A stretch of DNA of 64,000 nt from Sphingobacteriaceae bacterium (GTDB lineage Bacteria; Bacteroidota; Bacteroidia; B-17B0; Aurantibacillaceae), in NCBI GenBank assembly GCA_947480015.1, contig CANKBS010000009.1:3255-67254 (forward strand), read 5' to 3'. The notes under the pieces were generated by a model. That model was given only the letters and a program-made list of their open reading frames with translations, was not told the origin of the DNA and made no database searches. Both the position numbers and the translations under genes were made by a program. How positions within the stretch are numbered: the first letter of the stretch is position 1; each line of letters starts with the position of its first letter. Positions 6,483-59,888 of this stretch are shown piece by piece.

Positions 6483-6498
6483 TTAAATACCCCAACAT

Positions 6499-31426: not shown

Positions 31427-31442
31427 ATGGCTTTTGATATTG
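31427..31442 (+). other. attL: original 5' end of the aconitase gene (ATGGCTTTTGATATTG), core GATATTG at 31436-31442
   Basis: 14/16 identical to 57606-57621; both encode MAFDI; the left copy runs into a stop after 11 aa. Confidence 0.75.
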
Positions 31443-31463
31443 GTGTACACCTTATCAAATAAA

Positions 31464-32882
31464 TTAAGCCAAAGCGTTATTAACAGTGAGTTTCACCATC
31501 CTTTCAGAGTAAATATTTTTTGGCGAATTTTCTGTTTTCGCCAAATTTTCTTCATTTTTTTCTTCAAATTCATCAAAATTTACTTGTCTAAAAACACGTT
31601 TTTCAGGGTCTGCATCAAACTTATCTAACTTGGCAATGTACTTAAATGTCGTGGTCAATTCTGTGTGTAAACATTGGGCAGATATTTCCTGTATGTCCCA
31701 TCTTTCAACTTTATACAAATAAAGTGCTCCAGTAGCTTTTAAGCAATAAAAATTATGTAGAGTAGTAAATTCCTTACTGTAGCCCAGTTCGTTTCTTAAA
31801 ATATCGTTCCAGAGGTTAGAAGCCCACATGCGGTTCCTAAGATGTTCCCCCTTCCTTTGACGAAATGCTTTAGAACTTTTGTTTGGTCTTGGTCTAAAAG
31901 TTGGAGGGAACAATAGTTTCTCGGGTTGCATTGGGTCATAGTTATTGGTTGATATTAAATATTCAATCACATGATTAGGAATGCTAATAGTACCCGACTG
32001 ACCATTTTTAACAATGCTGGAGTATACTTCGATATTGTAGTTCTTTGCGTTCTTTTTTACATTAATACACTTTAATTTTAAAATCGTGTCGCCACGCAGG
32101 AGACCATAATACATTAACATCGCAAATCCGAAGAGCTCCTTGTACTTTCGTTTTGTCTTTTGCTTCAAGTGATGCATAATTTTCTTGTAATCTTGATTTG
32201 CCAAAGGCATGTTTTTATTTTTGTCATTGCTTTTAACCCTAGAAGCTTTGGTTACCGGATTAACGGGCAACAATTGACTATAGGCATTGAAAAAAGCATG
32301 TATCTTTGACCGATAGGTTTTTCGGGTATTGTCTGACCAATCCTTTCGATATTTTGCCCAGTTTGCAAATACTTCATTACAAATGCCCTCTGTCATATCT
32401 TTTATAGTCAATTCCTTTAGCCCTGCTTTACCATATTCATCTTGCAAAGAATCTTTAAAAGCATCCAAGGCATTGAAATATAGGTCTTGGTTGGAGATAC
32501 TTTCGTTTGTCTGATAACGCATCTGCACATATTCATCAATCAGGTTTGTGATTGGGATGAATTCCGCTGAGCGTCTACGTTTTAATACTGCTTTCCAGTT
32601 TTTCTCATTAATTCCCTTGTCATACTGACCTGAGACAATATCTTCTGCGACTTTAGGTAAAATATTGTTATCTACATATTCTGTCATTGCTTTTTTACTG
32701 CCTTGACAATGTTCTCTGAGTTGCTCAAAGCCGTGAAATTGACAATAAGTACCAATGTTTCTTATTTTACCTACAAACATTGACCCTTTGATATGGTCAA
32801 ATGCACCATAGTAAATGTAACAATGGTATGCTTTTCGTGAAAATTTAAAAGTTGGTTGTTTGAATGTTTTAATATTTTTCAT
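31464..32882 (-). CDS. int: Tyrosine recombinase / integrase (divergent)
   Basis: YYGLLRGD (Arg), VKNGQ (Lys), YCLKATG at the HxxR position, QCLHTELTTTFKY (His and nucleophile Tyr); adjacent to attL. Confidence 0.85.
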   Translation of the reverse strand: MKNIKTFKQPTFKFSRKAYHCYIYYGAFDHIKGSMFVGKIRNIGTYCQFHGFEQLREHCQGSKKAMTEYVDNNILPKVAEDIVSGQYDKGINEKNWKAVLKRRRSAEFIPITNLIDEYVQMRYQTNESISNQDLYFNALDAFKDSLQDEYGKAGLKELTIKDMTEGICNEVFANWAKYRKDWSDNTRKTYRSKIHAFFNAYSQLLPVNPVTKASRVKSNDKNKNMPLANQDYKKIMHHLKQKTKRKYKELFGFAMLMYYGLLRGDTILKLKCINVKKNAKNYNIEVYSSIVKNGQSGTISIPNHVIEYLISTNNYDPMQPEKLLFPPTFRPRPNKSSKAFRQRKGEHLRNRMWASNLWNDILRNELGYSKEFTTLHNFYCLKATGALYLYKVERWDIQEISAQCLHTELTTTFKYIAKLDKFDADPEKRVFRQVNFDEFEEKNEENLAKTENSPKNIYSERMVKLTVNNALA

Positions 32883-32883
32883 T

Positions 32884-33375
32884 TTAATATATTTTTTCGA
32901 TTAAGATTATTGGATTAATTGTGTCCTTTGTTTTTGTTATGTTTTTTTGAGGATAAGGAATAGCCTCACCTACTCTGCTTGCAATTGTTTCAAATGGTTC
33001 TAGATTTAACTCGTAACCATCAATGAATTTTATATTAACCGGACTGGCTCTAATGTTTTTGAAATACAGCCAGTCAGCATTAAACAATGATTCGTAATTC
33101 AAATTATTAAAATCAATATATCCGAGTGTCGTAAAATCCTCAATAGAAATTAGCTTACACGGAAGTTCATTTTTGTTGAATCCGAAGTCACGTCGGCAGG
33201 TTTTAAATAAAAACTTCATAAATTGAGGACGGGTATATACCTGAGATAGCTGTGAAATAATCTCTTCACCTGAACCTTTTAAATACATACCGCCAAATAA
33301 CTTTTGAGATACTAGTGCAATTTCTTCCTGAATTAGGATGATTCGACCTGTTGTGATGGTTGTTGCTATACTCAT
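32884..33375 (-). CDS. Hypothetical protein
   Basis: 163-aa ORF tightly coupled to both neighbours. Confidence 0.6.
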   Translation of the reverse strand: MSIATTITTGRIILIQEEIALVSQKLFGGMYLKGSGEEIISQLSQVYTRPQFMKFLFKTCRRDFGFNKNELPCKLISIEDFTTLGYIDFNNLNYESLFNADWLYFKNIRASPVNIKFIDGYELNLEPFETIASRVGEAIPYPQKNITKTKDTINPIILIEKIY

Positions 33376-33791
33376 TTTGACTCTTTTGAAGGGTTTGTAA
33401 CTGCGGTCGAATATCCAGCATTATTTTTTTTGGAGCTGGATGATTTGCTTTTATTTGTTGGCTCCTCAAAACGCTCGTCATAATTGCCTATGAATTTGGA
33501 ATTTACCTTTGAATCATAATCTTTAAGTATTTCTCTTATTTCACTATCTGGTTTTGCTAAAAGGAATTGTCTTATTACTGCAACATTCAAGAATTTCAAG
33601 GTGTTAATTATGGTGTCAGGTTTCACATTTGACATATCTATTATTAGTAACAACTCAAATAGAAGTTTCTCTGCAATTCGCTCATTAAAATCGAACCGAT
33701 TTGTTGCCAGCTCTTTAGACAACATTAATACTTTACCATCCTCGCTTGCAGTGAGATTCGATTTTTCTGCATTTGTTTTTTTAATTTTCAT
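33372..33791 (-). CDS. Hypothetical protein
   Basis: 139-aa ORF overlapping both neighbours. Confidence 0.6.
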   Translation of the reverse strand: MKIKKTNAEKSNLTASEDGKVLMLSKELATNRFDFNERIAEKLLFELLLIIDMSNVKPDTIINTLKFLNVAVIRQFLLAKPDSEIREILKDYDSKVNSKFIGNYDERFEEPTNKSKSSSSKKNNAGYSTAVTNPSKESK

Positions 33792-34569
33792 GATTTTTCG
33801 TTTTTATTTGTTTAATTTTTTTGCTTTTAATAGGGAATTCTTGAACTCTAAGGCTTTTTTTCCATTCAGCTTTAGTTGCTCCATGTCTGTCATTAAGTCC
33901 AAAAGATTTCGCAAGGTGAGTGCCGAGCTGTTTAAGAAATACAGCCACCTTATGTCTTTTGCAATCACCTATCATTTTATAGAGCCATATCTCATTGCAT
34001 GGTCTGAACCTGTATTTGCCGGTACTATTTCCGCTTTCTCCACCTAGTATTATCCAATGAAAGTCATACTCTTCATAAATACTCGTAAAATCGATGTATT
34101 CTAGGAGAGGCTCCGCTGAAATAAATCGAATTTTGGCGGGGATTTGACCCAGCACTTTGGCTCTATGAATAGCCTTATCATTCTCGATGGTGACACCGAG
34201 CCAAACATTCTCATATCCAGTTCCCCAGTCGGGCGGTAGGCATTGACTAATCCTTTCAGGTCGTTTGGTAAGAATCTGATATGTGTGGTGAGGAGTGGCT
34301 CTGATAATCTGCCATATTTCATCACGCCAAGCATCAGCTTCCTCAATAAAAAAGTCACTCCAAGAGCAAGTGAAGATTATTTTACCTTCCTTCCATTTTA
34401 GAGGGTCGTTAAAAGCAGTTTTTGATTTTTGAACGACATTGCCATCTTTACCATATCTCGCCTTATCGCGAAACATATAGCAATATTTACAGCCATCACT
34501 AACCTTGTGACAGCCATGGTGTGGATTCCAAGTGGCATCCGTCCATTGAATTTCAGTTTGTATCCCCAT
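33781..34569 (-). CDS. DUF5131 / phage Gp37-Gp68 family radical-SAM-like protein
   Basis: IQWTDATWNP, GCHKVSDGCKYCY, FTCSWSDFF, QILTKRP, WLGVTIEN, FISAEPLL, WIILGGESG, FLKQLG. Confidence 0.92.
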   Translation of the reverse strand: MGIQTEIQWTDATWNPHHGCHKVSDGCKYCYMFRDKARYGKDGNVVQKSKTAFNDPLKWKEGKIIFTCSWSDFFIEEADAWRDEIWQIIRATPHHTYQILTKRPERISQCLPPDWGTGYENVWLGVTIENDKAIHRAKVLGQIPAKIRFISAEPLLEYIDFTSIYEEYDFHWIILGGESGNSTGKYRFRPCNEIWLYKMIGDCKRHKVAVFLKQLGTHLAKSFGLNDRHGATKAEWKKSLRVQEFPIKSKKIKQIKTKNHEN

Positions 34570-34666
34570 TCTATATATTTTTATATCGCAAAGAAACAGC
34601 GAATAAAATGGGTAATCTTCCCAAAAAAATTAATGTTAAGATTGGGAAGATTGGGAAGATTTGTGA

Positions 34667-35377
34667 TTAAGAGCCATAGGAGATTCTTGAAATTAAATCT
34701 CTTAATTCTTCATCTATATTATGTCTCTCAATAAGCTTGTAAGGAGTTCTAAATTCACTTCCGTCCTTACTCAAATTTAAACCTCTTATCTTTTCGTTAA
34801 GAACTTTTACATAGACCTTCTCTGAAAATTTGCGAATTAATTGTTTCTCCTTGTTTCTGAGTAATTCTAATACCCAAGAAGCAATTACTCCCTTATGCTT
34901 ACCAATATAAACGTTACCGGCACTGACTGAAGGTTTTCTAAGTTTCCGTAACACATCCAAACACTTTTCAGCAAGTTCCGGTGAATCAAAAAGTTCATCG
35001 AAAGATATTGGTTTACTTAATTCAGAAAACTCGTTTTGAATTTTAATTAATTCTATAGTTGGGTCTAAATCAAAATTAAACCCCTTTTCGTGTAATTTCT
35101 CAAAATACTTACCGAATGCCTTAAGCTCATTTTTATTGTCTTTATTAATTGAAATTGTGTTTACTGTTAATGCATATTGAATACCCCAATCACTACCGAA
35201 AGTTTTTCTAAGTAATATGATAGTTTCTTTATCGTAAGCAAACTCTGCTTCAAGCGAATAAACAAGCCCATCATGTAAATGCACGTTTTTCGCTTTTACC
35301 CAGTTACGAGTTTCTGTAATTGTCTTGAACCCAAGCCAATTCCTTAAATATTCTATTGTCCACCAATCAATTCTCAT
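34667..35377 (-). CDS. Hypothetical protein, possible N-terminal HTH/excisionase-like segment
   Basis: 236-aa ORF; WTIEYLRNWLGFKTITETRNWV resembles a short DNA-binding HTH (inference). Confidence 0.55.
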   Translation of the reverse strand: MRIDWWTIEYLRNWLGFKTITETRNWVKAKNVHLHDGLVYSLEAEFAYDKETIILLRKTFGSDWGIQYALTVNTISINKDNKNELKAFGKYFEKLHEKGFNFDLDPTIELIKIQNEFSELSKPISFDELFDSPELAEKCLDVLRKLRKPSVSAGNVYIGKHKGVIASWVLELLRNKEKQLIRKFSEKVYVKVLNEKIRGLNLSKDGSEFRTPYKLIERHNIDEELRDLISRISYGS

Positions 35378-35496
35378 AGCTCTATCGTTTTTTCTATTAA
35401 TACTTTTCTTTCTAAACCGAGTGGGCGAATAGTGATTACTTTACCTATTAGCTCCTCAAGCATTTTATTTGCTACTATTTTTCGTTGTTTCGCCAT
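35374..35496 (-). CDS. Small 40-aa ORF (MAKQRKIVANKMLEELIGKV...), absent from the ORF track
   Basis: ATG at 35496 after an A-rich leader; TGA overlaps the next ATG (ATGA coupling). Confidence 0.5.
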   Translation of the reverse strand: MAKQRKIVANKMLEELIGKVITIRPLGLERKVLIEKTIEL

Positions 35497-35579
35497 TTTA
35501 TATTTGTTTTTAATGTTTTAACGGATTCGATTATAATTTGGTTACAGAATTTTCAAACTTTATTTTTTTTTATTTTGGG

Positions 35580-35611
35580 CGATTGGCAGAAGCCTAGTCC
35601 GACTATTCGTA
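35580..35611 (+). repeat. Copy 1 of 32-bp motif CG(A/C)TTGGCAGAANNCTNNTCNGN6CGTA
   Basis: Identical spacing in four copies (35580, 37348, 38672, 41511). Confidence 0.8.
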
Positions 35612-35912
35612 ATGGTTGATTAAGCATTTTTATAGACTAAACAATTCTAAAAAATAATGTTGTCAAGTATTACAGATAATTATCTACGCAAGATATTTTG
35701 ACAGAAGAATTTTTTTCCTTTATACTGCTCTTGTATAAGAATGTATTGGGATTCGCAGTTCCTGTAAAATTATTTTTACAAAACCTTGACATTTTAAATA
35801 TTACCCTTTATTTATGTAGGACTAGGTCAAGTAGTTTTAAACAGAATTTTTAATCCTGATGCTGAGTAGGTGCTTGACCCACTGAAAGGCAATCAGGATT
35901 TTTATTTTAATC

Positions 35913-37076
35913 ATGTGTTATGAAATAAATCTTTATGAATCAGTAAAAAAACCAAAAGTAAAATCCACAATTACAACAGATGCTCTTTTTGAAATTATCC
36001 GCAGTGGCGGTAGTAATTTAGAATTAATAAATAAAGCTCGCAATCTGGGAAAACAGCACGTTGAATATCAAGATATAAAAACTAATCTTCCAGCCGTCAC
36101 GTGGAGTTTCCTGTTTGAAGGTTACAAAAAAGACAAGAACATTATAAACAGCACCGGGCTAATTTATTATGATATAGATGTGGCACTGACAATGAACTTG
36201 AATACAGATTACATTTTTGCAAAATACCAATCACTTTCAAATGTTGGCTCCACAATAATCGTGAAGGTTTCCGGAGTAACAATAAATAACTTCAGTGCAA
36301 CCTATTGTGCTATTGCTAATAAATTGGGAATAATTGACCTTATAGATAGCAATGCTTCGAAGAGAACCCAATTTAATGTGATTTCTTATGACCCAAATAT
36401 TTTTACAAATAATGAGTCATTTTGCTTCAGTGCAGAAACAATGCCTGAATTTGAAGAGCCTAAATTAAATACAGCCAATGAAAATCAGAAAAATGTAAAA
36501 TGGAGGTACGACAATTATGCCGATTATTGCAAAGAAAATGACACCCAAGAATATGAGTTTGGAGTGCCTGTTGTTAGCCTCTATTTACCCTCAACCATTA
36601 AAAATGGAAAAAGAAAACATACTCTTTTATCTTATTGCAACAATCTCGTTCTGCTAAATCCAATGCGTTCCTTTGGTGAGGTCTACACTCACTTATTAGA
36701 ACGAAATTCAGAGAAATGTACAGAGCCATTAGACTCAAATGAAATCAAAGACATAGTAACTTCCATTTTCAAATACAAAAATGAAAACAAATTAAAATTT
36801 AAATATACACGTACGAAGAAAATATTTTATGGAAGAAAAAGTGGACTAACAGTTAAAGAAAGACAAAGGGAAGCCAGAAAAACTGTTGGCTGTTGGCAGA
36901 GAAACAAAACAAAAACTAAAATTTACAATGCAATAGAAAGATGGGATTCAAATAAGAAAATAACAATTAAAGAAGTTAGTCATCTAATAGGTATGTCAGT
37001 CAGAACGGTAAAGACATATTGGATTGAGTTCAAAGAGTTTGTTAAGGAAGAAAATGAGAATAAAAAGTGCAGTTAA
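35913..37076 (+). CDS. Replication/primase-like protein: BT4734/VirE-N-like domain + PriCT-like domain + C-terminal HTH
   Basis: LPAVTW...STGLIYYDID, KYQSLSNVG; GKRKHTL...PLDSNEIKDIVTSIFKY; ITIKEVSHLIGMSVRTVKTYW. Confidence 0.7.
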   Translation: MCYEINLYESVKKPKVKSTITTDALFEIIRSGGSNLELINKARNLGKQHVEYQDIKTNLPAVTWSFLFEGYKKDKNIINSTGLIYYDIDVALTMNLNTDYIFAKYQSLSNVGSTIIVKVSGVTINNFSATYCAIANKLGIIDLIDSNASKRTQFNVISYDPNIFTNNESFCFSAETMPEFEEPKLNTANENQKNVKWRYDNYADYCKENDTQEYEFGVPVVSLYLPSTIKNGKRKHTLLSYCNNLVLLNPMRSFGEVYTHLLERNSEKCTEPLDSNEIKDIVTSIFKYKNENKLKFKYTRTKKIFYGRKSGLTVKERQREARKTVGCWQRNKTKTKIYNAIERWDSNKKITIKEVSHLIGMSVRTVKTYWIEFKEFVKEENENKKCS

Positions 37077-37347
37077 CTGTTATGTATTTATTAAATAGGA
37101 AACATATAACACTTGATTGCACCTTTTTTAAATGCTAATAAAAACAAGTACTTATAAATTGCTTCATTTTTTTTGTGGAATTTTTTTTGGGAAACCAAAT
37201 CAATTGGTTGAATTAAAATATTTCAAAATTAGGTTTCGATTGTATATAGGTCTGTTCAAACTTTTGGAGCCATTAGTTTTTAGAGCTAAAATTAGATACG
37301 AGAATAGCCCCCCTATTTAGGCTCCAAATTAAGGGACTTACGTTCTT

Positions 37348-37379
37348 CGATTGGCAGAATTCTGTTCTGACAAGCCGTA
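37348..37379 (+). repeat. Copy 2 of 32-bp motif
   Basis: CGATTGGCAGAATTCTGTTCTGACAAGCCGTA. Confidence 0.8.
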
Positions 37380-37449
37380 TATAACCCAATTAAAAAAACA
37401 CAGTTAATCCAGAGCTCCCGGAGATGGAGCTGGTTTGAAAAACGGCTCG

Positions 37450-37944
37450 TTAACTTTTCATCAAATCATCTATCTTTCTTCTCTCATCCTCATTAAAAAT
37501 ATTAAACTCAATATGTCGACCTGTCTTAGAAGCGATAATCACTTGTGAAGTTTTTTTGCCGAACATTTTTAATAGAAGTCTATCTGTTATAGTAGACCCG
37601 AATAAAGCATCCCAAAAGGAAAAGAAAATAATGTATCCACCAAACCCCGCAATGCCTGCGAAAACAATAGAGGTGTAGGTAAAGAATCTTCCAATATCTC
37701 CTGTCAGTCCATTTATCGCATAGCCGATGCCGCTCCACCCAAAATAAAGTGCTAAACCGATGGCTCCAAACCTGAATGCATAATTCCAATCCGAATATTT
37801 GAGAACCCTTGCATCAACAATATTAATTCCCGCAAAATCACTTTTTTCTATAACAGTTAAAGTAAATGGTTTCAAGCACTTGTATATATATTGCGAATCC
37901 TCTATAATCAATTCACCAGAAAGAAATTGAATTTTTTCTTCCAT
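37450..37944 (-). CDS. Hypothetical membrane protein (two TM helices)
   Basis: Hydrophobic Gly-rich segments AFRFGAIGLALYFGWSGIG and IVFAGIAGFGGYIIFFSFW. Confidence 0.7.
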   Translation of the reverse strand: MEEKIQFLSGELIIEDSQYIYKCLKPFTLTVIEKSDFAGINIVDARVLKYSDWNYAFRFGAIGLALYFGWSGIGYAINGLTGDIGRFFTYTSIVFAGIAGFGGYIIFFSFWDALFGSTITDRLLLKMFGKKTSQVIIASKTGRHIEFNIFNEDERRKIDDLMKS

Positions 37945-37947
37945 AAA

Positions 37948-38325
37948 TTATTCTTTGATTGAATGGTAAACACTACCCCAACCACTCAAATAGAGCTTTT
38001 TTCCCATCGTTGACAATTCTGTTTTTTTTCCGTTATGCAAATCTATTTCCCATGCATCATGTTTTTTATTGAACTCACCAACCGACCATGTTCCATTATC
38101 TTCTCCATATGTCGGTTGACCCGATAAATTGGTGGATGTCCGCCAAGTTCCATCGTTAACGAATATGGTTGTTTGTTCTCCTCCCATATTATCTGTTCCA
38201 TTAAAACAGCATCCAACCAATTTAGTTGAAACTTCTTCTTTTGACCATTTCGATTGTGGACTGCCACAAGAGATGATGAAAAGTGTAACCACAGTTAAAA
38301 GCGAGATTATTTTAGTTGTTTTCAT
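37948..38325 (-). CDS. Hypothetical lipoprotein
   Basis: MKTTK signal, lipobox IISC. Confidence 0.72.
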   Translation of the reverse strand: MKTTKIISLLTVVTLFIISCGSPQSKWSKEEVSTKLVGCCFNGTDNMGGEQTTIFVNDGTWRTSTNLSGQPTYGEDNGTWSVGEFNKKHDAWEIDLHNGKKTELSTMGKKLYLSGWGSVYHSIKE

Positions 38326-38364
38326 AATTAATATTTTTATGGCTAATGTAGAATAAAATTGTGT

Positions 38365-38384
38365 TTACGGCAAATTTGTCGTAA
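38365..38384. promoter_or_regulatory. Palindromic operator candidate for the adjacent XRE regulator
   Basis: TTACGGCAAA/TTTGTCGTAA, 20 bp with one mismatch, between divergent starts. Confidence 0.6.
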
Positions 38385-38396
38385 GGAAATTTACCA

Positions 38397-38633
38397 GTGT
38401 TCGCCACTTTTAAGGTGGTGAAGTACTACAAATCTGAAATAGCCAAACTTGGTAAAAAAATCAAGAAAATGAGGGAGTCCAAAGGGATGACCCAAGAAAA
38501 CTTATCCGATTTATGTCAAGTGGATATTAGAACAATTCAAAGATTAGAAAAGGGTGAATTTGGCTCTGGTTTACACCTAATTTACGCGTTGGCAGATGCC
38601 TTTGAAATATCGGTTCCCGAACTTTTGACATAA
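38397..38633 (+). CDS. XRE-family HTH transcriptional regulator
   Basis: IKKMRESKGMTQENLSDLCQVDIRTIQRLEKG; true start may be a few codons downstream. Confidence 0.9.
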   Translation: MFATFKVVKYYKSEIAKLGKKIKKMRESKGMTQENLSDLCQVDIRTIQRLEKGEFGSGLHLIYALADAFEISVPELLT

Positions 38634-38671
38634 TATTTAGCCTGTAGATAAGGTATACAACTAAGTCTTAA

Positions 38672-38703
38672 CGATTGGCAGAAATCTGTTCAGTAAAATC
38701 GTA
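38672..38703 (+). repeat. Copy 3 of 32-bp motif
   Basis: CGATTGGCAGAAATCTGTTCAGTAAAATCGTA. Confidence 0.8.
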
Positions 38704-38851
38704 TAAGTTTAAATAAAAAATTTTGATGCCCACCTGTGAATTCTGGAGCCGGAGCTAAAACTGAAACTGATTAAAATAATCTTGCTTTATTTGAAAACTA
38801 ATGGCAATTTAGCTTATGAAATAAAACTTGAAAAAAAACTTCACTTAAGTA

Positions 38852-40697: not shown

Positions 40698-40737
40698 ACT
40701 TAAAATCGAAACAAAATTTTAGTCAAATAAAAACTCT

Positions 40738-41487: not shown

Positions 41488-41510
41488 AACTTTGCTTTAA
41501 TTCAATTAAT

Positions 41511-41655: not shown

Positions 41656-42132
41656 ATGGCAAGAAAATTTCACTTGCATCTAACTAACAAACTGACAAAT
41701 CACTTCATAGCTCGCTATTTCCATGGCAACCTCCAAGGAATGGCAATTATAGTGCTAACAAAGTCGAATATTGAGCAAATAAGGAGTGTTAAGAAACTAA
41801 TTGAGATAGCTAAAACACTTGAACCTTCAATTCAATCCATGAAAAGTGTTCTTCAAAACGAAAAGAAAATCTTCCCCTACCCGATTAATACAGACCCTAA
41901 AGAAATTATTGATTCAAAAGTGTTTTGTAAAGAATTCAGAACAAACAAAGCAGTGTGGAAATTGGAACCGTTCCAATGGCTAGATACTGAAAACCAATTT
42001 ATAATCGAAGAAATTTTTCTGATTTGCGAAAAAGACACATTTAATTTCGAGATTTACTTTTATCCTGAAAATGGAATCACCGAAACAAAAATGCTAGTCG
42101 AGAGAATTCCTTATTATCAAATCGGATTATGA
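41656..42132 (+). CDS. Hypothetical protein
   Basis: 158-aa ORF, start uncertain. Confidence 0.55.
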   Translation: MARKFHLHLTNKLTNHFIARYFHGNLQGMAIIVLTKSNIEQIRSVKKLIEIAKTLEPSIQSMKSVLQNEKKIFPYPINTDPKEIIDSKVFCKEFRTNKAVWKLEPFQWLDTENQFIIEEIFLICEKDTFNFEIYFYPENGITETKMLVERIPYYQIGL

Positions 42133-42247
42133 CTGTGCGAAAAAGGTCTAAAAAACAAGGTGTGTTTTTACCAGTAAAATCAAGCTTTCTTAATTTTATT
42201 TTCAGTGTTCTAAAAACGAGTGTTAATCTAACAGCAAAACTACAATT

Positions 42248-42823
42248 ATGAAAACAGCTATTTATGTCCGATGTTCAACTAAGACTAAAGGTCAAGACGT
42301 CGAGAACCAATTAATTCAGCTTCGTACATTTTGTAAGAGGAGCAACTACGAAATCACAAAAGTATATGAGGACTATGAAAGTGGCAATGACCTAAATCGA
42401 AAAGGTTTTAATGAAATGCTTAATGATGCCCGGAAAAGAAAATTTGAACTTCTTGTATTTTGGTCGCTAGACCGATTCTCCCGCTCTGGAACAAGACAGA
42501 CCATCCACTACCTTCAACAACTGGAGAGTTATAATGTTGTCTACAAAAGTTTCACTGAACAATATATTGACAGTGCCGGAATCTTTAGTGATGTTATCAT
42601 CAGCATTTTAAGTACCCTCGCGAAACAAGAAAAGGTCAGGCTAAGCGAGCGAGTAAAAGCTGGTTTGGATAAGGCAAGAACAAAAGGGAGAGTTGGAGGG
42701 AGACCGAAATTAAATCAAGATGTTATTGAGAAAATTAAAGAAATGAAGAGCCAAGGCTACTCAAATCGGCATATTGGACGTGAACTAAAGATTGGGAATT
42801 CAACAGTGGGACAATATTTATAA
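42248..42823 (+). CDS. Small serine recombinase (resolvase/invertase) with C-terminal HTH
   Basis: YVRCST (catalytic Ser), NQLIQL, SLDRFSR, RVKAGL...GRVGGRP, HTH tail. Confidence 0.93.
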   Translation: MKTAIYVRCSTKTKGQDVENQLIQLRTFCKRSNYEITKVYEDYESGNDLNRKGFNEMLNDARKRKFELLVFWSLDRFSRSGTRQTIHYLQQLESYNVVYKSFTEQYIDSAGIFSDVIISILSTLAKQEKVRLSERVKAGLDKARTKGRVGGRPKLNQDVIEKIKEMKSQGYSNRHIGRELKIGNSTVGQYL

Positions 42824-43874: not shown

Positions 43875-44441
43875 TCAGACCCGCAATCTTGAAAATTGAA
43901 CTCGTTTCCTAAGCTGATTCTTAATCCTATTCAGCTTTGAATTCAATGCAGAAACACTTGTATTTAATTCATGAGCCAATTTTTTTTGACTGAACTGTTC
44001 AAAATAGTAAAGGTTTATTAAGTTCTTGTCTTTGGGGTTTAATTCACTAATAATCGCCTCTAAATATTTAGACTGTTCTTCTTTGATTAATGATGTTTCG
44101 AGGTCTTCTACATCGTTACATTTAATATTTAAATTGTATGGCTCTTCACGGGAGACAACTAAGCTCTTGTTCTTTTTAAATCTATACAAATCAATTAATG
44201 CGTTACGAGTTATTCTTTCCACCCAAGGCTTCAGGTGATAGTCTGGTTTAAAAGTGTAGAGCTTGTCAAATACTTTTACAGTTAAATCATGAGCCAATTC
44301 AATTGACTCTGCATCATAAATTGAACAATAATAAAGTTGATTTTTTATTATACCTCGAATTAGTTTATATAGTTGCTCAGAGGCTCTGTTATTTCCGTTC
44401 AAAGCCAATTCAATAACTTCCATTTCGTTTTTTATCTTCAT
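43875..44441 (-). CDS. ECF-type RNA polymerase sigma factor
   Basis: Region 2 (DLTVKVF...WVERITRNALIDLYR) and region 4 (LINLYYFEQFSQKKLAHELNTSVSALNSKLNR). Confidence 0.85.
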   Translation of the reverse strand: MKIKNEMEVIELALNGNNRASEQLYKLIRGIIKNQLYYCSIYDAESIELAHDLTVKVFDKLYTFKPDYHLKPWVERITRNALIDLYRFKKNKSLVVSREEPYNLNIKCNDVEDLETSLIKEEQSKYLEAIISELNPKDKNLINLYYFEQFSQKKLAHELNTSVSALNSKLNRIKNQLRKRVQFSRLRV

Positions 44442-44445
44442 AATT

Positions 44446-44904
44446 CTATTTTAAAAATTCATATATTTTTTTTGGTAGTAAAATCCTACATGTGTCTTGT
44501 TCAACGGATACTGTAATAGTCTTCAGACAAATGGTTGCATCAATAATTGCTTCATAATTCAGTATAAATTCTGATACAGATTTTTTGTTCACGGATTTCA
44601 ATTTCTTCTGGAAATTTAGATTGGAGTTATTATAAAGCTGAAGGATTTTTTCATCTCCATGCTCTTCCCTACTCTTGGCACTTGTAAAAACCAGTAAAGA
44701 TTGTGGTTTACCCGGAAAATTCATTTTAAGAGCCGAAAAAAAAGAAAGAAAATCAGTGCCATAAATTAGTGCCGGATTTGAAAAGGATTTTTCTGAGGCT
44801 CCAGTATCCAAAATCAAATTGGAATTTGAAACGCTTGCTGTCTGCTTTTGCCCGCAGAAACTAAGACTAAGAGCCAATATTATTTTACAAACAACCTTCA
44901 CCAT
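44446..44904 (-). CDS. Hypothetical exported protein / lipoprotein, co-oriented with the ECF sigma gene
   Basis: N-terminal hydrophobic stretch ending LSFC; 4-bp gap to the sigma gene. Confidence 0.6.
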   Translation of the reverse strand: MVKVVCKIILALSLSFCGQKQTASVSNSNLILDTGASEKSFSNPALIYGTDFLSFFSALKMNFPGKPQSLLVFTSAKSREEHGDEKILQLYNNSNLNFQKKLKSVNKKSVSEFILNYEAIIDATICLKTITVSVEQDTCRILLPKKIYEFLK

Positions 44905-47427: not shown

Positions 47428-47430
47428 TCG

Positions 47431-47913: not shown

Positions 47914-47921
47914 ATAAATAG

Positions 47922-50683: not shown

Positions 50684-50910
50684 TAATAATCATTTAAAAA
50701 ATAGAGGGCAAACTTAAATATCTATGTCTGTAATAATGATACAAAATCCAAAACCAGCAAAAAGTCAAAATAAAGTACCCAATTCCCAACTTAATATAAA
50801 CATAGTTGGGTTTCTTAAACAGTTGTTTATTAACCTTTTATGACCTGTTTTATCTGAAGGGAATCTTCCTTATATTTAACTAAATTTACGAACAACCTTT
50901 TATCAATTTA

Positions 50911-53439
50911 ATGACGAAAATACCCTTCAAAGTATCTGCAAGAACCGCCAAACTTATTGGACAAGAGAACTTCTCTAATCCAGAGGGTGCAACTATTGAA
51001 TTGGTAAAAAACTGTTATGATGCTGATGCGAAAAATTGTTTAGTTGTTTACGACATATTATTTGATAGTATTCCTGAAACACTTTCTACCAAAGAATATA
51101 AAAACTACTCATCAGAAAACGAAGTTGTAAGGCTAGGTTACAAACTGAAAGAAGGGAAATATTTTCTTACACAAAGTTTAAATGAAAAAAGAACAAATGA
51201 ATTGCTTTCGTTTTTCTATTCGTTTAACTCGATTTACATCATAGACAATGGTGATGGAATGACTCAAAGTGTGATTCAAAACCAATGGATGGAAATTGGA
51301 ACCGGAAACAAAGAGACTAACTACATCTCAGATGATGGCAGGATAAAGACAGGAGCGAAAGGAATTGGAAGATTTGCACTTGACCGTTTGGGATTTTTTG
51401 CAGAAATGTGGACTGTTCCCAAAGATAAAAAATCTGGACATGGTTATTATTGGAGCATGGACTGGACACAGTTTGAAGCTCCGAACAAATCTGTTTCAGA
51501 TATTGAAGCAGACTTTGAGGCAAAAGATATAAACCTAAAAACATTCATCCAAGAACACTTCAAAAGTCATTCAGGTTTAGTTGATTTTATCAAATCAAAA
51601 TCATTTAGTAGTGGCACAATAATTAAAATTTCAAAACTTAAAGACAGTTGGAATGAAACCAATTTACAAAGTGTATTTAAGAGTTTAGAGGCGTTAATTC
51701 CACCAAAGGAATTAGAAATTCCATTCCATGTAAATTTCTATCACCTGCAAAAGCCAAAAGTATTTGGTGAAGTGGAAACAGCTTACTTCAATGATTATGA
51801 CTACAAAGTTTTAGCAAAATTCAATTCAAAAGATTTAACTGTTGATTTGACTTTAACTAGGAACGAGTTGGATTTAAAAAAGGTAAAAAAGGAATTTGTT
51901 CACATTTTTAAGAACGCAAAACAACCATACGACTTAAAGACCTTAGAGAAAAAGGAATTTACCATTTCTAAAACAGCTAACGAAATTTTAAAGTGGGAGA
52001 ATAATAATTATAATGAAACAGCACTTAAGAAATTAGGTGACTTTGCTTTTTCATTTTACTTTTTAAAAAATATAACATCACTAAAAGAAGATTATCCGCA
52101 TCAGGCAATTAATTCTAAAGAACGTAAAGAAATTATTGAAAAGTTTGGCGGAATAAAAATTTACAGAGACTCATTTCGTGTAAGACCTTATGGAGATACT
52201 GGTAACGATTGGTTGAAGCTAGGAGAAAGGGCTTCTGTTAGTCCTGCTGGCGCAGGGCAAAGAATTGGAGATTGGAGAGTAAGACCAAATCAAATCGCAG
52301 GGCTTATTACAATTTCAAGAATTGAAAATCCAAATCTGCTCGACAAGTCAGACCGAGGTGGACTTCAAGAGAATGAAGCTTTTGATACACTTCAAAAATT
52401 ATTGAAAGCACTTATTTATGAATTTGAGTTGGATAGAACTAAAATTCTAAATCCATTCTACCTTGATGCTAAAGCAAAAGAGGAGAAAAAAAGAGAAGCT
52501 GAAATAAGGAAAGAGGCAGAAAAATTAGCTGACAAAATCGTTCTTGAAAGACAAAAAGTTGAACACAAAATATACGGCTCTAAACAAGACCTTTTTAAAG
52601 GTATAAAAGATGAAGAAGAAAAAGAAGCATATAAAAATGTCATAAAGAAAAGTTTAGAGAAGTTTGAAAAAAGGGATGATGAATATGCAGAAATTGCACA
52701 GATAAGAACTTTAGCAAGTTTAGGTTTAATAGTTTCATCGTTTGCACACGAACTAAAAGAAGTTAGAAACAACTTTGACGATATACATGAACTTGAAAAA
52801 ATCTTTAACAAGATTGTTTCTGATGACAAGAAGAAAAATGTTGACTTCAAAGATGGGCTGAACATTATTGAATTGCTAAAATCAGCAAATCAAAAAATTT
52901 CTCATTGGGTTGATTATTCTCTGACAGCTATCAAAAAAGACAAAAGAAAAAGGACAACTATAAAGTTTGACAGATATTTTTCCGGACTGAGTAAGAACTG
53001 GAAAAAAGTTTTAGAGAATAGCAATGTGGAGCTTGACTTGAAAAACAACATCAAGAACCCTTATGTATTTAGGGGTTTTGAGATGGATTTGAATACTGTT
53101 TTCAATAATCTAATTTCAAATTCCATTGAAGCATTTCACAACTTACGAGTTATTCGTGATAGAAAAATTGTAATTGCATTTTCATTAGTTAAGAACAACA
53201 TTCAAATAATATACTCCGACAACGGAACAGGAATTCCAAGCGTTTTCAAAAAAGAAAGGGATGAAATCTTTTTACCGTTCACTACTTCCAAGAAAGACAA
53301 AGAAGGAAATGAAATAGGAACAGGTTTAGGAATGTATCTTGTAAAAAATGTGATGAATGACAACAATGGTTCAGTAGAAATTATGGATGCACCTGTTGGC
53401 TTAAAATTAAAAATTGATTTTCCAATCAGAAAAAAATAG
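50911..53439 (+). CDS. Fusion of MORC/HSP90-like GHKL ATPase and C-terminal histidine kinase
   Basis: N-term IELVKNCYDADA, IDNGDGM, GAKGIGRFA; C-term H-box SFAHEL, N-box FNNLISNS, DNGTGI, F-box FLPF, GTGLGM; no TM segments. Confidence 0.88.
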   Translation: MTKIPFKVSARTAKLIGQENFSNPEGATIELVKNCYDADAKNCLVVYDILFDSIPETLSTKEYKNYSSENEVVRLGYKLKEGKYFLTQSLNEKRTNELLSFFYSFNSIYIIDNGDGMTQSVIQNQWMEIGTGNKETNYISDDGRIKTGAKGIGRFALDRLGFFAEMWTVPKDKKSGHGYYWSMDWTQFEAPNKSVSDIEADFEAKDINLKTFIQEHFKSHSGLVDFIKSKSFSSGTIIKISKLKDSWNETNLQSVFKSLEALIPPKELEIPFHVNFYHLQKPKVFGEVETAYFNDYDYKVLAKFNSKDLTVDLTLTRNELDLKKVKKEFVHIFKNAKQPYDLKTLEKKEFTISKTANEILKWENNNYNETALKKLGDFAFSFYFLKNITSLKEDYPHQAINSKERKEIIEKFGGIKIYRDSFRVRPYGDTGNDWLKLGERASVSPAGAGQRIGDWRVRPNQIAGLITISRIENPNLLDKSDRGGLQENEAFDTLQKLLKALIYEFELDRTKILNPFYLDAKAKEEKKREAEIRKEAEKLADKIVLERQKVEHKIYGSKQDLFKGIKDEEEKEAYKNVIKKSLEKFEKRDDEYAEIAQIRTLASLGLIVSSFAHELKEVRNNFDDIHELEKIFNKIVSDDKKKNVDFKDGLNIIELLKSANQKISHWVDYSLTAIKKDKRKRTTIKFDRYFSGLSKNWKKVLENSNVELDLKNNIKNPYVFRGFEMDLNTVFNNLISNSIEAFHNLRVIRDRKIVIAFSLVKNNIQIIYSDNGTGIPSVFKKERDEIFLPFTTSKKDKEGNEIGTGLGMYLVKNVMNDNNGSVEIMDAPVGLKLKIDFPIRKK

Positions 53440-53444
53440 TCAAG

Positions 53445-54080
53445 ATGAAATACAAAATCGGATACATAGACGAAGACCCAACTCAATTCAATAAGTATGA
53501 AAGAGAATTGAGGGAATATTTTGATGTTGTCGGTTATCAAATATCAAAAGGGTTACCCCTTGAAGATATGATAAATCAAGTTTATGAATCAGATATAGAC
53601 TTATTGCTTGTTGATTATCTCCTAGTTGAAAAAGGTGTTTTGGTTTACAACGGAGATAAAGTTGCAAGAGCATTTGAAGAAATTAAACCAAGGTTTCCGA
53701 TAATAATTTTCACCAATGAAGAGAATCAAGCATTCCCACAAGTTGACAATCCTTTCAACATTTGTGATAAAGCAGAAGTAAAAGACAACATCAACAAGTT
53801 TGTTTCAAAGCTCACTAAGTTAATTGAGCAATACAAAGGTTTTGTTTCAAAAAGAAAAGACCTAATTAATAAACTCCTTGACAAAGGTGAAAAAGAAGGA
53901 TTAAGCTCTGAAGAAAAGCATGAATTACTTCAGGCACAATCAGAATTAAATAATCTTGACAAGCGTTCAACCGAAGTTCCTCTTCAGTTAATGACTGATA
54001 AAAAACTCGAAGACCTATCAAAGACAACTAAAGAGGCGGAAGCGTTTTTGGAATCACTAATTAAAAAGAATAAGAAGTGA
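53445..54080 (+). CDS. Receiver-domain protein with helical C-terminal extension
   Basis: YIDED, LLVDY (phospho-Asp), IFTN, DK; no DNA-binding HTH recognised. Confidence 0.8.
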   Translation: MKYKIGYIDEDPTQFNKYERELREYFDVVGYQISKGLPLEDMINQVYESDIDLLLVDYLLVEKGVLVYNGDKVARAFEEIKPRFPIIIFTNEENQAFPQVDNPFNICDKAEVKDNINKFVSKLTKLIEQYKGFVSKRKDLINKLLDKGEKEGLSSEEKHELLQAQSELNNLDKRSTEVPLQLMTDKKLEDLSKTTKEAEAFLESLIKKNKK

Positions 54081-54712
54081 TACCACTTAGAGATATAACA
54101 CCTTCACGGACAGCTCCAGTATTAAACGAAACTGACGGGAATTGGGGAAAGCATAAGCCACAATTAAAAAATGATTTTAATAGTCATTGTGGTTATTGTC
54201 ATTCATATGACGGATATAAACACACATATTTTGAAGTTGACCACTTCGTTCCGAAAAGTGTAATCATTAAAAACGGGTGGGACATTCCCTCAGCCCGTTA
54301 CAACAACTTGGTTTATTCCTGTAAGTTTTGTAACAATAAAAAACTTAGTAAGTGGACAACCAACAGCCATATAGTTTATAATGATGGCACAACTGGTTTT
54401 GTTGACCCATGTGATGCGTCTTATGATACACTTTTTTACAGAACAACTGACGGAGCAATAAGACCTGATGCAAATTCTGACTTGGCAAAATGGATGTATA
54501 AAGTGGCATTCAAGTTTGACGAAAGAGAAAGAGCTATAATTGTTCTTTGGAACATGAATAGATTAAGACAGATTATTGATGGGCTTATAGTGGAACTTAA
54601 TACTTATGGAATCGGCTCAACAGATTACAACACGATAAAATTAAAGCTCGGTGAATACGCGCTGAAATATTATATCTTTCACAAGGAATTAATTGAATTC
54701 TATGAGCAATAA
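54077..54712 (+). CDS. HNH endonuclease
   Basis: CGYC...EVDHFVPKS...NNLVYSCKFCNNKK. Confidence 0.9.
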   Translation: MIPLRDITPSRTAPVLNETDGNWGKHKPQLKNDFNSHCGYCHSYDGYKHTYFEVDHFVPKSVIIKNGWDIPSARYNNLVYSCKFCNNKKLSKWTTNSHIVYNDGTTGFVDPCDASYDTLFYRTTDGAIRPDANSDLAKWMYKVAFKFDERERAIIVLWNMNRLRQIIDGLIVELNTYGIGSTDYNTIKLKLGEYALKYYIFHKELIEFYEQ

Positions 54713-56300
54713 AAAGAATATAGGCTCATTTTACACTCCAAAAATTATTGCAGATTTTTTGGTGGACTATCTGTCAAAAAAATTGACTGGTGATAATTTG
54801 ACAATATTGGAGCCAAGTGCAGGAGATGGAATTTTTATTCAGTCAATTTACAATCACCAAACCTTATCAAAGCAAATAAAAAAAGTAATTGCGGTTGAGA
54901 GAGAAAAAAATGAACTTGAAAAAGTAAAAGCAATTACAAAAAGTAAATCACTTGAAACTATTCATTCAGATTTTTTAAAGTTTCAAAATAACAACAAACA
55001 AAAATTTAATTTGGTGGTTGGCAATCCACCCTACATCAAGAAAAGTTTGTTAGAAGCAGAGCAAATTTCTCATTGTGAAAACATTCATAAACTCTTCCCG
55101 GCTCTTTCAGAAAATAAAATCAAAAATATCTGGACAGCTTTTTTAGTTCGGAGTATAAATTTTGTAAGCGACGATGGAATATTAGCTTTTGTTCTTCCTT
55201 CCGAATTACTGCAAGTAAAGTTTGCATCTGAACTTCGGGCTTTAATTCTTAAAGAATTTGAACGAGTTGAAATTTTTACTTTCAATGAATTGCTTTTTAA
55301 AGATTGCAAAGGACAAGACACCTTACTCTTAATTGGTGAACGTAAATCAAAAAACAAAGGTGTTTATTACTGCAATATTGGAAAATTGAATGACCTTGGA
55401 GAAAAAAGGTTTACACTTGCTCAGAATGTAAACATTAGAGAATCTAAATGGACGCATCATCACTTGGCTACTGATGAGATTGAACTTTTAGAGAAAATCA
55501 AAAAGCACCTTCATATTGCAAATTATTACTGTACATCAAAGGCAGGTATAGTAACTGCAGCCAATAATTATTTTATAGTGGATACTAAAACCGTTCAGGA
55601 ATATTCATTGAAGAAATATGTAAAGGAAATTATTCAGAAAGGGTCTTTTGTAAATGGTAGTGTTATTCTAACTCAACTTGAGTTTGACAATTTAGTTAAG
55701 CAATCAAAGCCGACATTTCTGATTGCTCTTAACAAGGCAACAAAGATTAAAACCAATGAAAGAATACATCAATATCTAGAAAAAGGTTTGGCTTTAAAAA
55801 TAAATGAGAGATATAAAACCTTATTGCGCAACAAGTGGTTTGAAGTTCCTAATGTTGGAAACCCACCTGAAGCATTTTTCTTTAAGCGCTGTAATGAATA
55901 TCCAAAACTAATTAAAAACAATGCAAGTGTTTTAACAACAGATAGTGCCTATACAATTGAAATGAAAGAAGACTATGACGTGGAAAACTTGATTTTCTCT
56001 TTCTACAACTCATTGACACTTTCTTTTGCTGAACTTAACGGTAGATATTACGGTGGTGGTGTTTTAGAATTGACTCCAAATGAATTCAAAAACTTACCTG
56101 TGCCTTACATGAATGTTGGAGTAAAAGAATTCAATTCGTTTGTAAAAGCCTTTAAGGGAAAGACTTCAATCAAAGATATTTGCCTAAAAAATGACACTAA
56201 AATTCTTAAATCAATTGACAGTAAAATTGACAGCGATAGTATAAACAAAATCTTTAGTATTCGTGAAAAGTTATATCTGCGTAGAATCAAAACGAATTAG
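54693..56300 (+). CDS. N6-adenine DNA methyltransferase (gamma-class, Eco57I/TaqI-like)
   Basis: GSFYTP, LEPSAGDGIF (motif I), GNPPY (motif IV), C-terminal TRD-like region; likely start ATG 54702. Confidence 0.9.
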   Translation: MNSMSNKKNIGSFYTPKIIADFLVDYLSKKLTGDNLTILEPSAGDGIFIQSIYNHQTLSKQIKKVIAVEREKNELEKVKAITKSKSLETIHSDFLKFQNNNKQKFNLVVGNPPYIKKSLLEAEQISHCENIHKLFPALSENKIKNIWTAFLVRSINFVSDDGILAFVLPSELLQVKFASELRALILKEFERVEIFTFNELLFKDCKGQDTLLLIGERKSKNKGVYYCNIGKLNDLGEKRFTLAQNVNIRESKWTHHHLATDEIELLEKIKKHLHIANYYCTSKAGIVTAANNYFIVDTKTVQEYSLKKYVKEIIQKGSFVNGSVILTQLEFDNLVKQSKPTFLIALNKATKIKTNERIHQYLEKGLALKINERYKTLLRNKWFEVPNVGNPPEAFFFKRCNEYPKLIKNNASVLTTDSAYTIEMKEDYDVENLIFSFYNSLTLSFAELNGRYYGGGVLELTPNEFKNLPVPYMNVGVKEFNSFVKAFKGKTSIKDICLKNDTKILKSIDSKIDSDSINKIFSIREKLYLRRIKTN

Positions 56301-56423
56301 CCAACGCATTAACAAATAATTTCAAGGTTCATTTTATTAAGATTTCCGAAAGAAATCCTTTCAAATTTCGTATTAATCTTCGTATACCATCATTATATTT
56401 CCTTGGTAAAAGATTAATACACC

Positions 56424-56741
56424 TTGAATTCAACCATCACCTTAGATAGCGAACTTTGGATTTCAGTAAAATCTGAAGATGCTAGTTATTCAAGGAGACC
56501 ATTATTTTTAATTGCCAATCGCTTCCGGGTTCACTTGCTTAAGCTATCTGAAAACTATTCCGGTCATGTGGTAAAAGCCTACTTGATAGTTGGTTTGGAG
56601 CCACACGAAAAACTAATTGTTTACTATTTGTTTCGCAAAAACAATTCAATCCAAAAAAGAAAAGTGCTACTGAACAAAGGATTTGACCGTGAGTTGGGGC
56701 GTTTGCTCGGTTTGGCTCTAGATAAAAAAATCGGTCACTAA
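56424..56741 (+). CDS. Hypothetical protein
   Basis: 105-aa ORF with TTG start, no recognised motif. Confidence 0.45.
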   Translation: MNSTITLDSELWISVKSEDASYSRRPLFLIANRFRVHLLKLSENYSGHVVKAYLIVGLEPHEKLIVYYLFRKNNSIQKRKVLLNKGFDRELGRLLGLALDKKIGH

Positions 56742-56784
56742 AACACTTCCACTGAATTTTCAAATCAATTAAAATTAAATCGAA

Positions 56785-57435
56785 ATGAGAAAAGGAATCA
56801 GCCATCAATTTAAAAAAGAATACATAGTAAAAAATGATTCAGGAGTAGATATTTTCTACTTTACCATTTACCAGTATTCTGAGGGCTTCAGAGAGCATTA
56901 CACAAACTTGAGTATCAATTGGGACAAGTACCCAATTCTGTTTTATTATTTGGATATACTCCTAAAGGTTGAGGAACACCGGATTGACAGCCTGTCAACT
57001 ATCCTTTTCAAGGAAATTAAGCGTTGCCCTGAATTTGCATCAGATTACTTCAAAGACGAAGTTCTGACCCGTGATGGTAGATATTCACCGGCACTGGCTA
57101 GAGAGGTTGGTCGCCTAAAACGCAAAAAGTTTGAAGCCGAACGTTATAAATTCCAATTAAACACCCCCTACTCGGCTGAACACAACCCTGAAGGCTTCAA
57201 AATAGCCCAGAGCCATTTAGAGCCAAATGGAGCTGGGCAGGATTATGTTAAGGCTCTACTGCCAAAAGATGCCTTTGAGAGGCTCCTAATTAATGAAAAG
57301 CTGCAAAATGCCTATATCGAGGTGTATTCTCCAGATGCTGATTTTATCCTTGGTAAAAGTCCGTCTGATGATGCTGTTTTTATGTATCAGGGTTCGCGAT
57401 TGTTACTCATGATTATTTTGAAAAGTCATTTGTAA
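56785..57435 (+). CDS. Hypothetical protein
   Basis: 216-aa ORF with ATG start, last gene of the element. Confidence 0.6.
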   Translation: MRKGISHQFKKEYIVKNDSGVDIFYFTIYQYSEGFREHYTNLSINWDKYPILFYYLDILLKVEEHRIDSLSTILFKEIKRCPEFASDYFKDEVLTRDGRYSPALAREVGRLKRKKFEAERYKFQLNTPYSAEHNPEGFKIAQSHLEPNGAGQDYVKALLPKDAFERLLINEKLQNAYIEVYSPDADFILGKSPSDDAVFMYQGSRLLLMIILKSHL

Positions 57436-57460
57436 AAAGCGGTTTAAATAATTAGCTTTG
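57429..57460 (+). promoter_or_regulatory. Bacteroidota primary-sigma promoter consensus inside the element, pointing at aconitase
   Basis: TTTG (57429-57432), 20-nt spacer, TAGCTTTG (57453-57460). Confidence 0.55.
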
Positions 57461-57605
57461 CTCCTCTCTGAAAGGAAAAAAATGGGTTGTGGATTTTACG
57501 AATAATTTATTCGCCAAAAATTCGCCAAATTTTTACCAAAAAGAGCCCTTTTTAGGGGAAAACAAAAAAGCTAAGTAATTGATTAACAAATAAATTAGAA
57601 AACAT

Positions 57606-57621
57606 ATGGCATTCGATATTG
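57606..57621 (+). other. attR: element-supplied aconitase start (ATGGCATTCGATATTG), core 57615-57621
   Basis: Direct repeat of 31427-31442 differing only at two synonymous third positions. Confidence 0.75.
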
Positions 57622-59873: not shown

Positions 59874-59888
59874 ATTCAGATAAAAAAG

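Follow-up and report, generated by a model that had tools for sequence, protein, structure and literature searches.

How can a housekeeping gene keep its reading frame when some 26 kb of DNA sit in its first codons? This question is raised by the aconitase gene acnA in a 64,000-nt stretch of DNA from a Sphingobacteriaceae bacterium (the window; all coordinates are positions within it, relatives' genomes are labelled G and public loci L), in which the start of the gene occurs twice. The left 16-mer, ATGGCTTTTGATATTG, begins at 31427 and the right 16-mer, ATGGCATTCGATATTG, at 57606; both encode MAFDI, as a first-pass annotation made from the sequence alone had noticed. The left copy reads ATG GCT TTT GAT ATT GGT GTA CAC CTT ATC AAA TAA and is an orphaned acnA 5' stub, the 11-residue MAFDIGVHLIK* of that annotation (31427-31462, + strand), of which the first 9 nt form the host B arm. 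The right copy starts an open reading frame (ORF) of 755 amino acids (aa; 57606-59873, + strand), the reconstituted acnA, in which the Pfam domains Aconitase (E 8.5e-144) and Aconitase_C (E 1.1e-40) were recognised; AcnA is full length, contains no stops and is up to 92% identical to its relatives. Sequence and comparison with relatives together establish the insertion, its exact boundaries and the restoration of the ORF, and very probably a 26.2-kb island with anti-phage defence genes recombined site-specifically into codons 1-5 of acnA by means of a tyrosine integrase of the lambda-Int type.

The island occupies 31443-57621 (26,179 bp). Its G+C content is 0.336, compared with 0.389 and 0.396 in the flanks, and the step falls at the 16-mer sites. 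The same sites coincide with the end of homology to the region upstream of acnA in genus relatives, and with a jump in nucleotide identity from 70% to 95-97% relative to an element copy in another host. When the whole 64-kb window was searched with up to 2 mismatches allowed, the 16-mer matched at these two sites only, against 0.15 expected by chance. The proposal of the first-pass annotation that an element is integrated at the aconitase start thus agrees with composition, homology breakpoints and identity jump alike.

The host belongs to an uncultured freshwater lineage of Bacteroidia. Its left flank carries aroC, encoding chorismate synthase (30241-31317, + strand; PF01264, E 3.4e-139). In element-free relatives from the genus aroC lies directly upstream of acnA (G018, G024, G019, G022 and G011), in G001 with a spacer. 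The acnA start of genus relatives reads ATGGC[A/T]TT[T/C]GA[C/T]ATTGAAATG, and that of L025 has exactly the spelling found at 31427, so that the uninterrupted aroC-acnA order with the left-hand start, which had been predicted for relatives lacking the element, does occur. Across the genus a block, cTTTTaa-N-aTAAnTTAG-N-gtCT, is kept upstream of acnA. In the window this block lies at 31361-31391 (+ strand), left of the stub, as TTTT-N19-TAATTTAG; it aligns with the block in 11 genus relatives and is the putative native acnA promoter, now orphaned and facing the 3' end of the integrase gene int. The 150 nt preceding the working acnA have nothing in common with it. Since the conserved block aligns left of the stub only, native promoter and leader have been displaced by 26 kb, and the working ATG, its leader and the DNA upstream belong to the island. 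A single aconitase match was found in the window's own genome (G000); because this is the sole aconitase detected there, a pressure to keep acnA expressed is plausible.

Relatives of the integrase are rare. Six homologues were present among 5.8 billion proteins, and a profile search of 1.84 billion cluster representatives returned five hits within the clade at E <= 1e-10, followed by a gap of ~100 bits to generic integrases; the clade comprises fewer than 10 sequences in public data. Within the genus the integrase was found in 1 of 76 species genomes, the window's own, and is absent from the other 75. A 400-genome sample of the class contained none, and single-protein and profile scans of genome contigs and metagenome contigs found nothing.

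Four public contigs carry homologous integrases that are 98%, 55%, 53% and 49% identical to that of the window (54%, 54% and 49% for the last three when calculated by BLASTP). Together with the window these contigs provide five readable integrase-side junctions (window, L032, L033, L034 and L038), and the reverse complement of ATGGC[A/T]TT[T/C]GA[C/T]ATTG was found at the integrase-proximal end in all five. In L038 an ORF of 238 aa separates this remnant of the acnA start from int; in the other elements the remnant comes immediately after the int stop codon. The tails of the stubs differ in sequence and length among the other elements, hence the stub peptide is not conserved. The host neighbour gene is aroC on one of the four public contigs, a MacB/FtsX gene on two and a redoxin gene on one. 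Because the same remnant stands beside different neighbours, the target is acnA, and aroC was rejected as the true target.

The far ends were reached for two elements, of ~17 kb and ~23 kb, and both join an acnA reading MAFDI(N/E)MIKK; these right ends (L045 and L046) restore M-A-F-D-I and align with the right end of the window. Similar integrases next to acnA in other genomes, for which the first-pass annotation had suggested a search, thus exist in every element with a readable junction, and two further right ends rebuild the ORF. Complete attL/attR pairs are available for three elements (window, L033/L046 and L038/L045). The attR was not reached for the L032/L040 type, in which the contig ends within the element, and for the L034/L127 type, in which the element is larger than 27 kb.

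The comparison between the window and L040 illustrates the boundary in detail. The aroC genes share 70% nucleotide identity and the native intergenic regions do not match, whereas stub plus P' arm are 94.6%, int 97% and orf163 96% identical at the nucleotide level. The jump in identity is located exactly at the repeat, and the same acnA site is used in both hosts. At the level of sequence comparison this establishes horizontal transfer of the element between hosts and an integrase clade that is site-specific for the acnA start. An intact int that is 97% identical, in hosts whose aroC genes are only 70% identical, implies that the transfer was recent.

Where within the repeat does the exchange occur? 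In the window attL and attR differ at positions 6 and 9, which leaves a possible overlap within positions 10-16. In L033/L046 the differing positions are 6 and 16 and the overlap may lie within 7-15; in L038/L045 no position differs and the pair is uninformative. The block of attL/attR identity common to all three pairs (positions 10-15/16) is GAYATT(G), and in attB it is bracketed by a perfect inverted repeat, CATTT/AAATG. Most likely, and with high confidence on our part, crossover takes place in the 7-bp overlap GAYATTG, which covers codons 4 and 5 plus the initial base of codon 6; the exact cleavage positions are presumptive. The attL copy of this probable overlap, GATATTG, is found at 31436-31442 (+ strand). 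The attR site (57606-57621, + strand) consists of the element-supplied ATGGCATTC at 57606-57614, followed by the overlap GATATTG at 57615-57621.

With crossover in GAYATTG, attP would be expected to read ...CATATGGCATTCGATATTGGTGTACACC. After integration, the host's promoter and leader would stay at attL together with ATG GCT TTT, which there runs on into element DNA and gives a stub of 11 codons without meaning; at attR the element's ATG GCA TTC would be joined to the rest of acnA, with the protein unchanged. With the element copy would come a ~150-nt A-rich leader and a TAnnTTTG promoter facing outward. On excision the native arrangement of acnA would return, and the island may still be able to excise today. 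The three right ends spell codons 2 and 3 as GCA TTC, GCA TTT and GCT TTT, the last being the spelling of that element's own host, and encode M-A-F in all cases. On this reading, coding for M-A-F is selected and the synonymous recoding is incidental. Of the synonymously recoded 5' end described in the first-pass annotation, the in-frame MAFDI start supplied by the element is therefore retained, and no weight is given to the recoding as such.

The DNA around both cores is organised as expected for an integrase that binds core and arms. The P' arm contains an inverted pair of arm-type sites, TTGGCGAAT-N-TTCGCCAAATTTTC, at 31519-31545 within the last int codons, and in 5/5 elements the inverted pair TGGCGAA/TTCGCCA is positioned at +79..82 and +95..98 from the core. 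On the P arm the sites form the tandem ATTCGCCAAAAATTCGCCAAATTTT (57509-57533, + strand), which is nearly identical in elements whose integrases are only ~50% identical; the tandem ATTCGCCAAAAATTCGCCA[A/C]ATTTT was present in 3/3 right ends, and the arm-type repeat is ATTCGCCA. In the window TTCGCCAAA occurs five times, with 1.26 occurrences expected, and four of the five lie within ~100 bp of the island ends. Additionally, 17-30 nt before the restored ATG there is a conserved 14-nt box, TAATTGATTAACAA (57576-57589, + strand), a possible binding site for an accessory factor. In the alignment of the three right ends this box is nearly invariant (its leading TAA is TTA in L046), and its core TTGATTAAC is found at -26/-27 in each of them. 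In layout, the right end of the window has a 12-nt insertion in the leader and otherwise matches the other two. The assignment to a core-and-arm-binding layout follows from the arm-type repeats on both arms, which are distinct from the core sequence, and their kept distances (three and five elements, respectively). Exact-motif scans for the P-arm repeat in genome, metagenome and viral collections gave 0 hits, and the motif was absent from a further 108 acnA loci. Half-sites related to the 14-nt box, TTATTAACA and TTGATTA, were seen in the P' arms of other elements.

The integrase itself (472 aa; 31464-32882, - strand) matched the PHROG 216 integrase family (E 1.7e-6) and is predicted to adopt a lambda-Int-like three-domain fold. 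An AlphaFold2 (AF2) model reached a pLDDT (the model's own confidence score) of 79.7 with an alignment of 20 sequences, compared with 41.7 when only 4 sequences were used. When this model was analyzed with Foldseek, the top match was full-length lambda Int (1z1b, E 8e-8), over 426 alignment columns that include the N-terminal domain. PDB matches at E <= 1e-3 numbered 60, and all 50 listed are tyrosine recombinases; among these, lambda Int is followed by Tn1549 Int, IntI, Cre and XerH, and XerA and a mycobacteriophage integrase are found as well. A PDB search with the integrase sequence gave no match. The AF2 model contains the core-binding and catalytic domain fold of tyrosine recombinases, and residues 8-83 are predicted as a three-stranded sheet and a helix (pLDDT 83-93), a candidate N-terminal arm-binding domain. 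Tyrosine recombinases have the catalytic residues R-K-HxxR-H/W-Y. In the 20-sequence alignment R263, K292, Y379, K382, H406 and Y415 are invariant.

Which promoter, then, drives the rebuilt acnA? Its ATG and the 26 kb upstream are island DNA, and the minus-strand run of genes ending in int is oriented towards the native promoter, so a full-length mRNA of acnA can only originate within the island. On this reading of the sequence, the earlier suggestion that aconitase transcription depends on the integrated element seems correct. Promoters of Bacteroidota have the consensus TTTG / TAnnTTTG. A candidate element promoter, TTTG-N20-TAGCTTTG, faces outward at 57429-57460 (+ strand) and fits this consensus, which the native block TTTT-N19-TAATTTAG also resembles. 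All three right ends have the TAnnTTTG (-7) box unchanged, and its distance to the first arm-type site downstream is 57 nt in each. This invariance and fixed spacing, next to upstream cargo that is unrelated, argue for selection on the box itself. We infer that the element promoter is active, as opposed to mere read-through from island genes upstream. A promoter scan of the E. coli type is uninformative for Bacteroidota. The leader matched no Rfam family, and its fold was not significantly structured. At the left end (31361-31470), a single nucleotide and no terminator separates the stop codon of the stub from that of int; since the orphaned native promoter faces the 3' end of int there, antisense transcription of int is likely.

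Several observations weigh against this account as a whole or against parts of it. No same-species empty site exists in the collections, the closest relatives sharing 92% AcnA identity. The integrase scores 24.7 bits against PF00589 (E 2.3e-5), below the Pfam gathering cutoff of 27.1; 20/20 of the aligned relatives, this clade included, match the family, with a best E of 1e-19. Its HxxR box reads Y379-C-L-K382, all 20 sequences having Lys at the position of the second catalytic Arg, and the island has no recognisable transfer genes. At the right end the bare TTTG-N20-TAGCTTTG pattern, although present where the first-pass annotation had placed a promoter, is not significantly enriched (8 matches in the window against 5.1 expected), and the -33 element of the candidate promoter is not kept in the other elements. 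Finally, all three attL/attR pairs share a second identity block of 6 bp, TATGGC, so that the position of the crossover rests on parsimony. This last point allows crossover in TATGGC (position -1 to 5), in which case codons 2-5 at attR would be host DNA and the spelling called 'recoded' simply that of the host, the element would contribute no more than leader, promoter and the shared ATGGC, and attP would be expected to read ...CATATGGCTTTTGATATTGGTGT. GCA TTC and GCA TTT are indeed native spellings in some relatives, and the block is identical between attL and attR in 3/3 pairs. Such a crossover, however, needs two substitutions within 4 nt of the P' arm in elements that are otherwise 95-97% identical and do not differ across the first 37 bases of this arm, whereas with crossover in GAYATTG these differences belong to host arms with ~30% divergence. 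Moreover, the inverted half-sites CATTT/AAATG bracket GAYATTG and not TATGGC. We therefore regard exchange in TATGGC as quite unlikely. Even less can be said for a chance origin of the 16-mers, or for an ancestral chromosomal block between aroC and acnA. At least two matches to the 16-mer were obtained in 2 of 100 window shuffles, but a coincidence would not place the repeats exactly at the GC step, the homology breakpoints and the identity jump against a second host, nor would the same stub be met again beside four homologous integrases. On these comparative data both ideas were rejected, and their probability is close to nil.

Given site-specific insertion through GAYATTG, the island might nevertheless be a fixed, immobile relic that integrated once by the same mechanism and then lost the ability to excise. 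The failure to recognise an excisionase or transfer genes with Pfam and PHROGs, and the non-canonical YxxK in place of HxxR, would fit such a history. The Tyr and Lys of this box are, however, also invariant in ~15 distant Bacteroidota-type integrases of the alignment (consensus YxxKHTGA), which makes YxxK a trait of the whole subfamily that does not look like decay or a lesion. In addition, the int ORF is undamaged, as are the two att sites and every arm-type repeat, and the near identity of int to the copy in a host with a diverged aroC indicates recent transfer. A relic is thus improbable. A more serious competitor, even if we hold it to be the less probable course, is that acnA is transcribed mainly by read-through from the co-oriented island genes at 50911-57435 (+ strand) instead of from the motif at 57429-57460. 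All genes between 45019 and 57435 are on the + strand, no terminator-like site was found between 57435 and 57606, and the promoter pattern alone is no commoner than chance. Read-through does not account for a TAnnTTTG box that stays invariant, with its constant spacing, in three right ends behind unrelated cargo. It is also compatible with the explanation preferred here, because transcription of acnA would still depend on the island.

The remaining genes of the island fall into two groups. Upstream of int, a probable int operon (32884-35377, - strand) encodes ORFs of 163 aa and 139 aa, which are candidate directionality factors, a DUF5131 protein and a 236-aa ORF; int is the last gene of this co-oriented minus-strand run, and an ORF of 150-170 aa abuts int in every related element. 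Backbone and cargo genes, annotated with Pfam and PHROGs, occupy 35913-57435 (+ strand) and comprise a weakly matching primase-like protein, a ParB-like/Mrr module, a resolvase, an ECF-like sigma factor, a complete type I restriction-modification (RM) system (hsdR/M/S), a GHKL ATPase, a receiver domain, an HNH nuclease and an Eco57I-type methyltransferase. Among the island ORFs of at least 100 aa, Pfam and PHROGs recognised no relaxase, coupling protein, type IV secretion or capsid genes. As relaxase, coupling protein and secretion genes were not recognised, we classify the island as an integrative defence island and not as an integrative and conjugative element; it may be mobilised in trans or represent a phage satellite.

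Besides int the elements share two backbone modules, with variable defence cargo between them. The first consists of an ORF of 158-166 aa followed by a serine resolvase, the second of the ECF-like sigma factor adjoining an ORF of 152-156 aa. The shared modules are located at 41656-42823 and 43875-44904 in the window, at 5714-6743 and 9375-10545 in L043, and at 9323-10756 and 13177-14222 in L127. Between the shared modules, McrBC and a pentapeptide protein are found in the second host, and DUF5131 and the ParB/Mrr module in the window. Between the copies L041/L046, L042/L045, L127/L130 and L039/L043 the cargo is wholly different. One copy carries SIR2, HNH, a Type ISP/MmeI-like enzyme and AbiGi; a second Dcm, two GHKL ATPases, NOV_C, Z1, DUF4420 and AIPR; a third a reverse transcriptase, nSTAND/AAA, WYL, PDDEXK, a DEAD helicase with MZB and CoiA; and a fourth McrBC with an EVE domain together with type I RM.

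On the right-hand side of the island, a methyltransferase gene directly follows acnA in the window (59874-61426). It is followed by a gene for a 761-aa protein (61429-63714, - strand) with an N-terminal signal-like segment and ~400 central residues of AEAKAKAEA-type Ala/Glu/Lys repeats; these repeats explain the odd composition at 62-63 kb (GC 0.489, AT skew -0.64). In one genus relative (G008:C4:66485-68535) acnA matches as two pieces with a TAA stop inside, which may represent a pseudogene or an assembly error.

Insertion at the 5' end of a protein-coding gene has precedents. SXT/R391 elements sit in the 5' end of prfC (PMC5812530). Like them, the island uses a tyrosine integrase aimed at the first codons of a housekeeping protein gene; unlike them (~100 kb, conjugative, in Gammaproteobacteria) it is 26 kb in size, has no recognisable transfer genes, carries defence cargo, resides in Bacteroidota and targets acnA. 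According to what Hochhut and Waldor reportedly described in 1999 (Mol Microbiol 32:99), SXT supplies a new promoter and new 5' coding sequence, and prfC stays functional. Islands with dusA integrases typically swap the dusA 5' end for their own sequence, and putative promoters were predicted upstream of the gene before and after integration (Farrugia et al. 2015, PMC4482086; Durand et al. 2021, PMC8409611). As with these islands, the integrases of the acnA elements form a dedicated family that uses a single 5'-end site of a single gene. The dusA target is a tRNA-modification gene of Proteobacteria, occupied in >200 genomes, whereas the acnA clade is known from few sequences, and the replaced residues are identical at acnA but merely similar at dusA. 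Altogether, the traits common to the acnA elements and the SXT-prfC and dusA islands are insertion in the first codons, junctions that are both marked by imperfect direct repeats, a replacement of the 5' end that is in frame and leaves the target ORF intact, and a dedicated integrase clade that uses one site in different hosts.

Another enzyme gene of the tricarboxylic acid (TCA) cycle, E. coli icd, is the integration site of e14 and phage 21, where a diverged duplicate of the gene end, carried by the element, keeps the ORF functional. In these enterobacterial prophages the 3' end is replaced and promoter and start remain native, whereas at acnA the 5' end is replaced. With lambda Int (1z1b), the best structural match, the system shares arm-type repeats on the P and P' arms and, probably, a 7-bp overlap; sequence identity is 14%, and YxxK stands in place of HxxR. 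Full-text literature searches gave no report of acnA as an integration or attachment site. The mechanism is thus not new in principle, as 5'-end targets in protein genes (prfC, dusA) and a TCA-cycle target (icd) are already known; the novelty lies in the choice of acnA, in a very small and isolated clade of integrases whose arm layout is conserved, and in the occurrence in Bacteroidota.

The arrangement might be regulatory as well as reparative, an idea to which we give little credence. Firing of the native acnA promoter antisense into the 3' end of int could tie the stability of the island to the metabolic state that governs this promoter. The arm-type integrase sites are located between the element promoter and acnA, so Int and accessory proteins bound there could throttle aconitase expression. 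If this were true, the island would have a means to influence the central metabolism of its host, for instance while a phage attacks. From a practical point of view, many acnA genes of Bacteroidota have kept the attB sequence ATGGCNTTYGAYATTGAAATG, and for this reason integrase, arm sites and outward promoter could serve as a neutral-site integration tool in genetically difficult Bacteroidota. The locus adds a well-defined Bacteroidota integrase/att pair to the short list of elements that rebuild the 5' end of an essential-type gene, and it represents a rare carrier of highly variable defence cargo, with RM, McrBC, SIR2, reverse-transcriptase/nSTAND and AIPR/Z1 modules in different copies.

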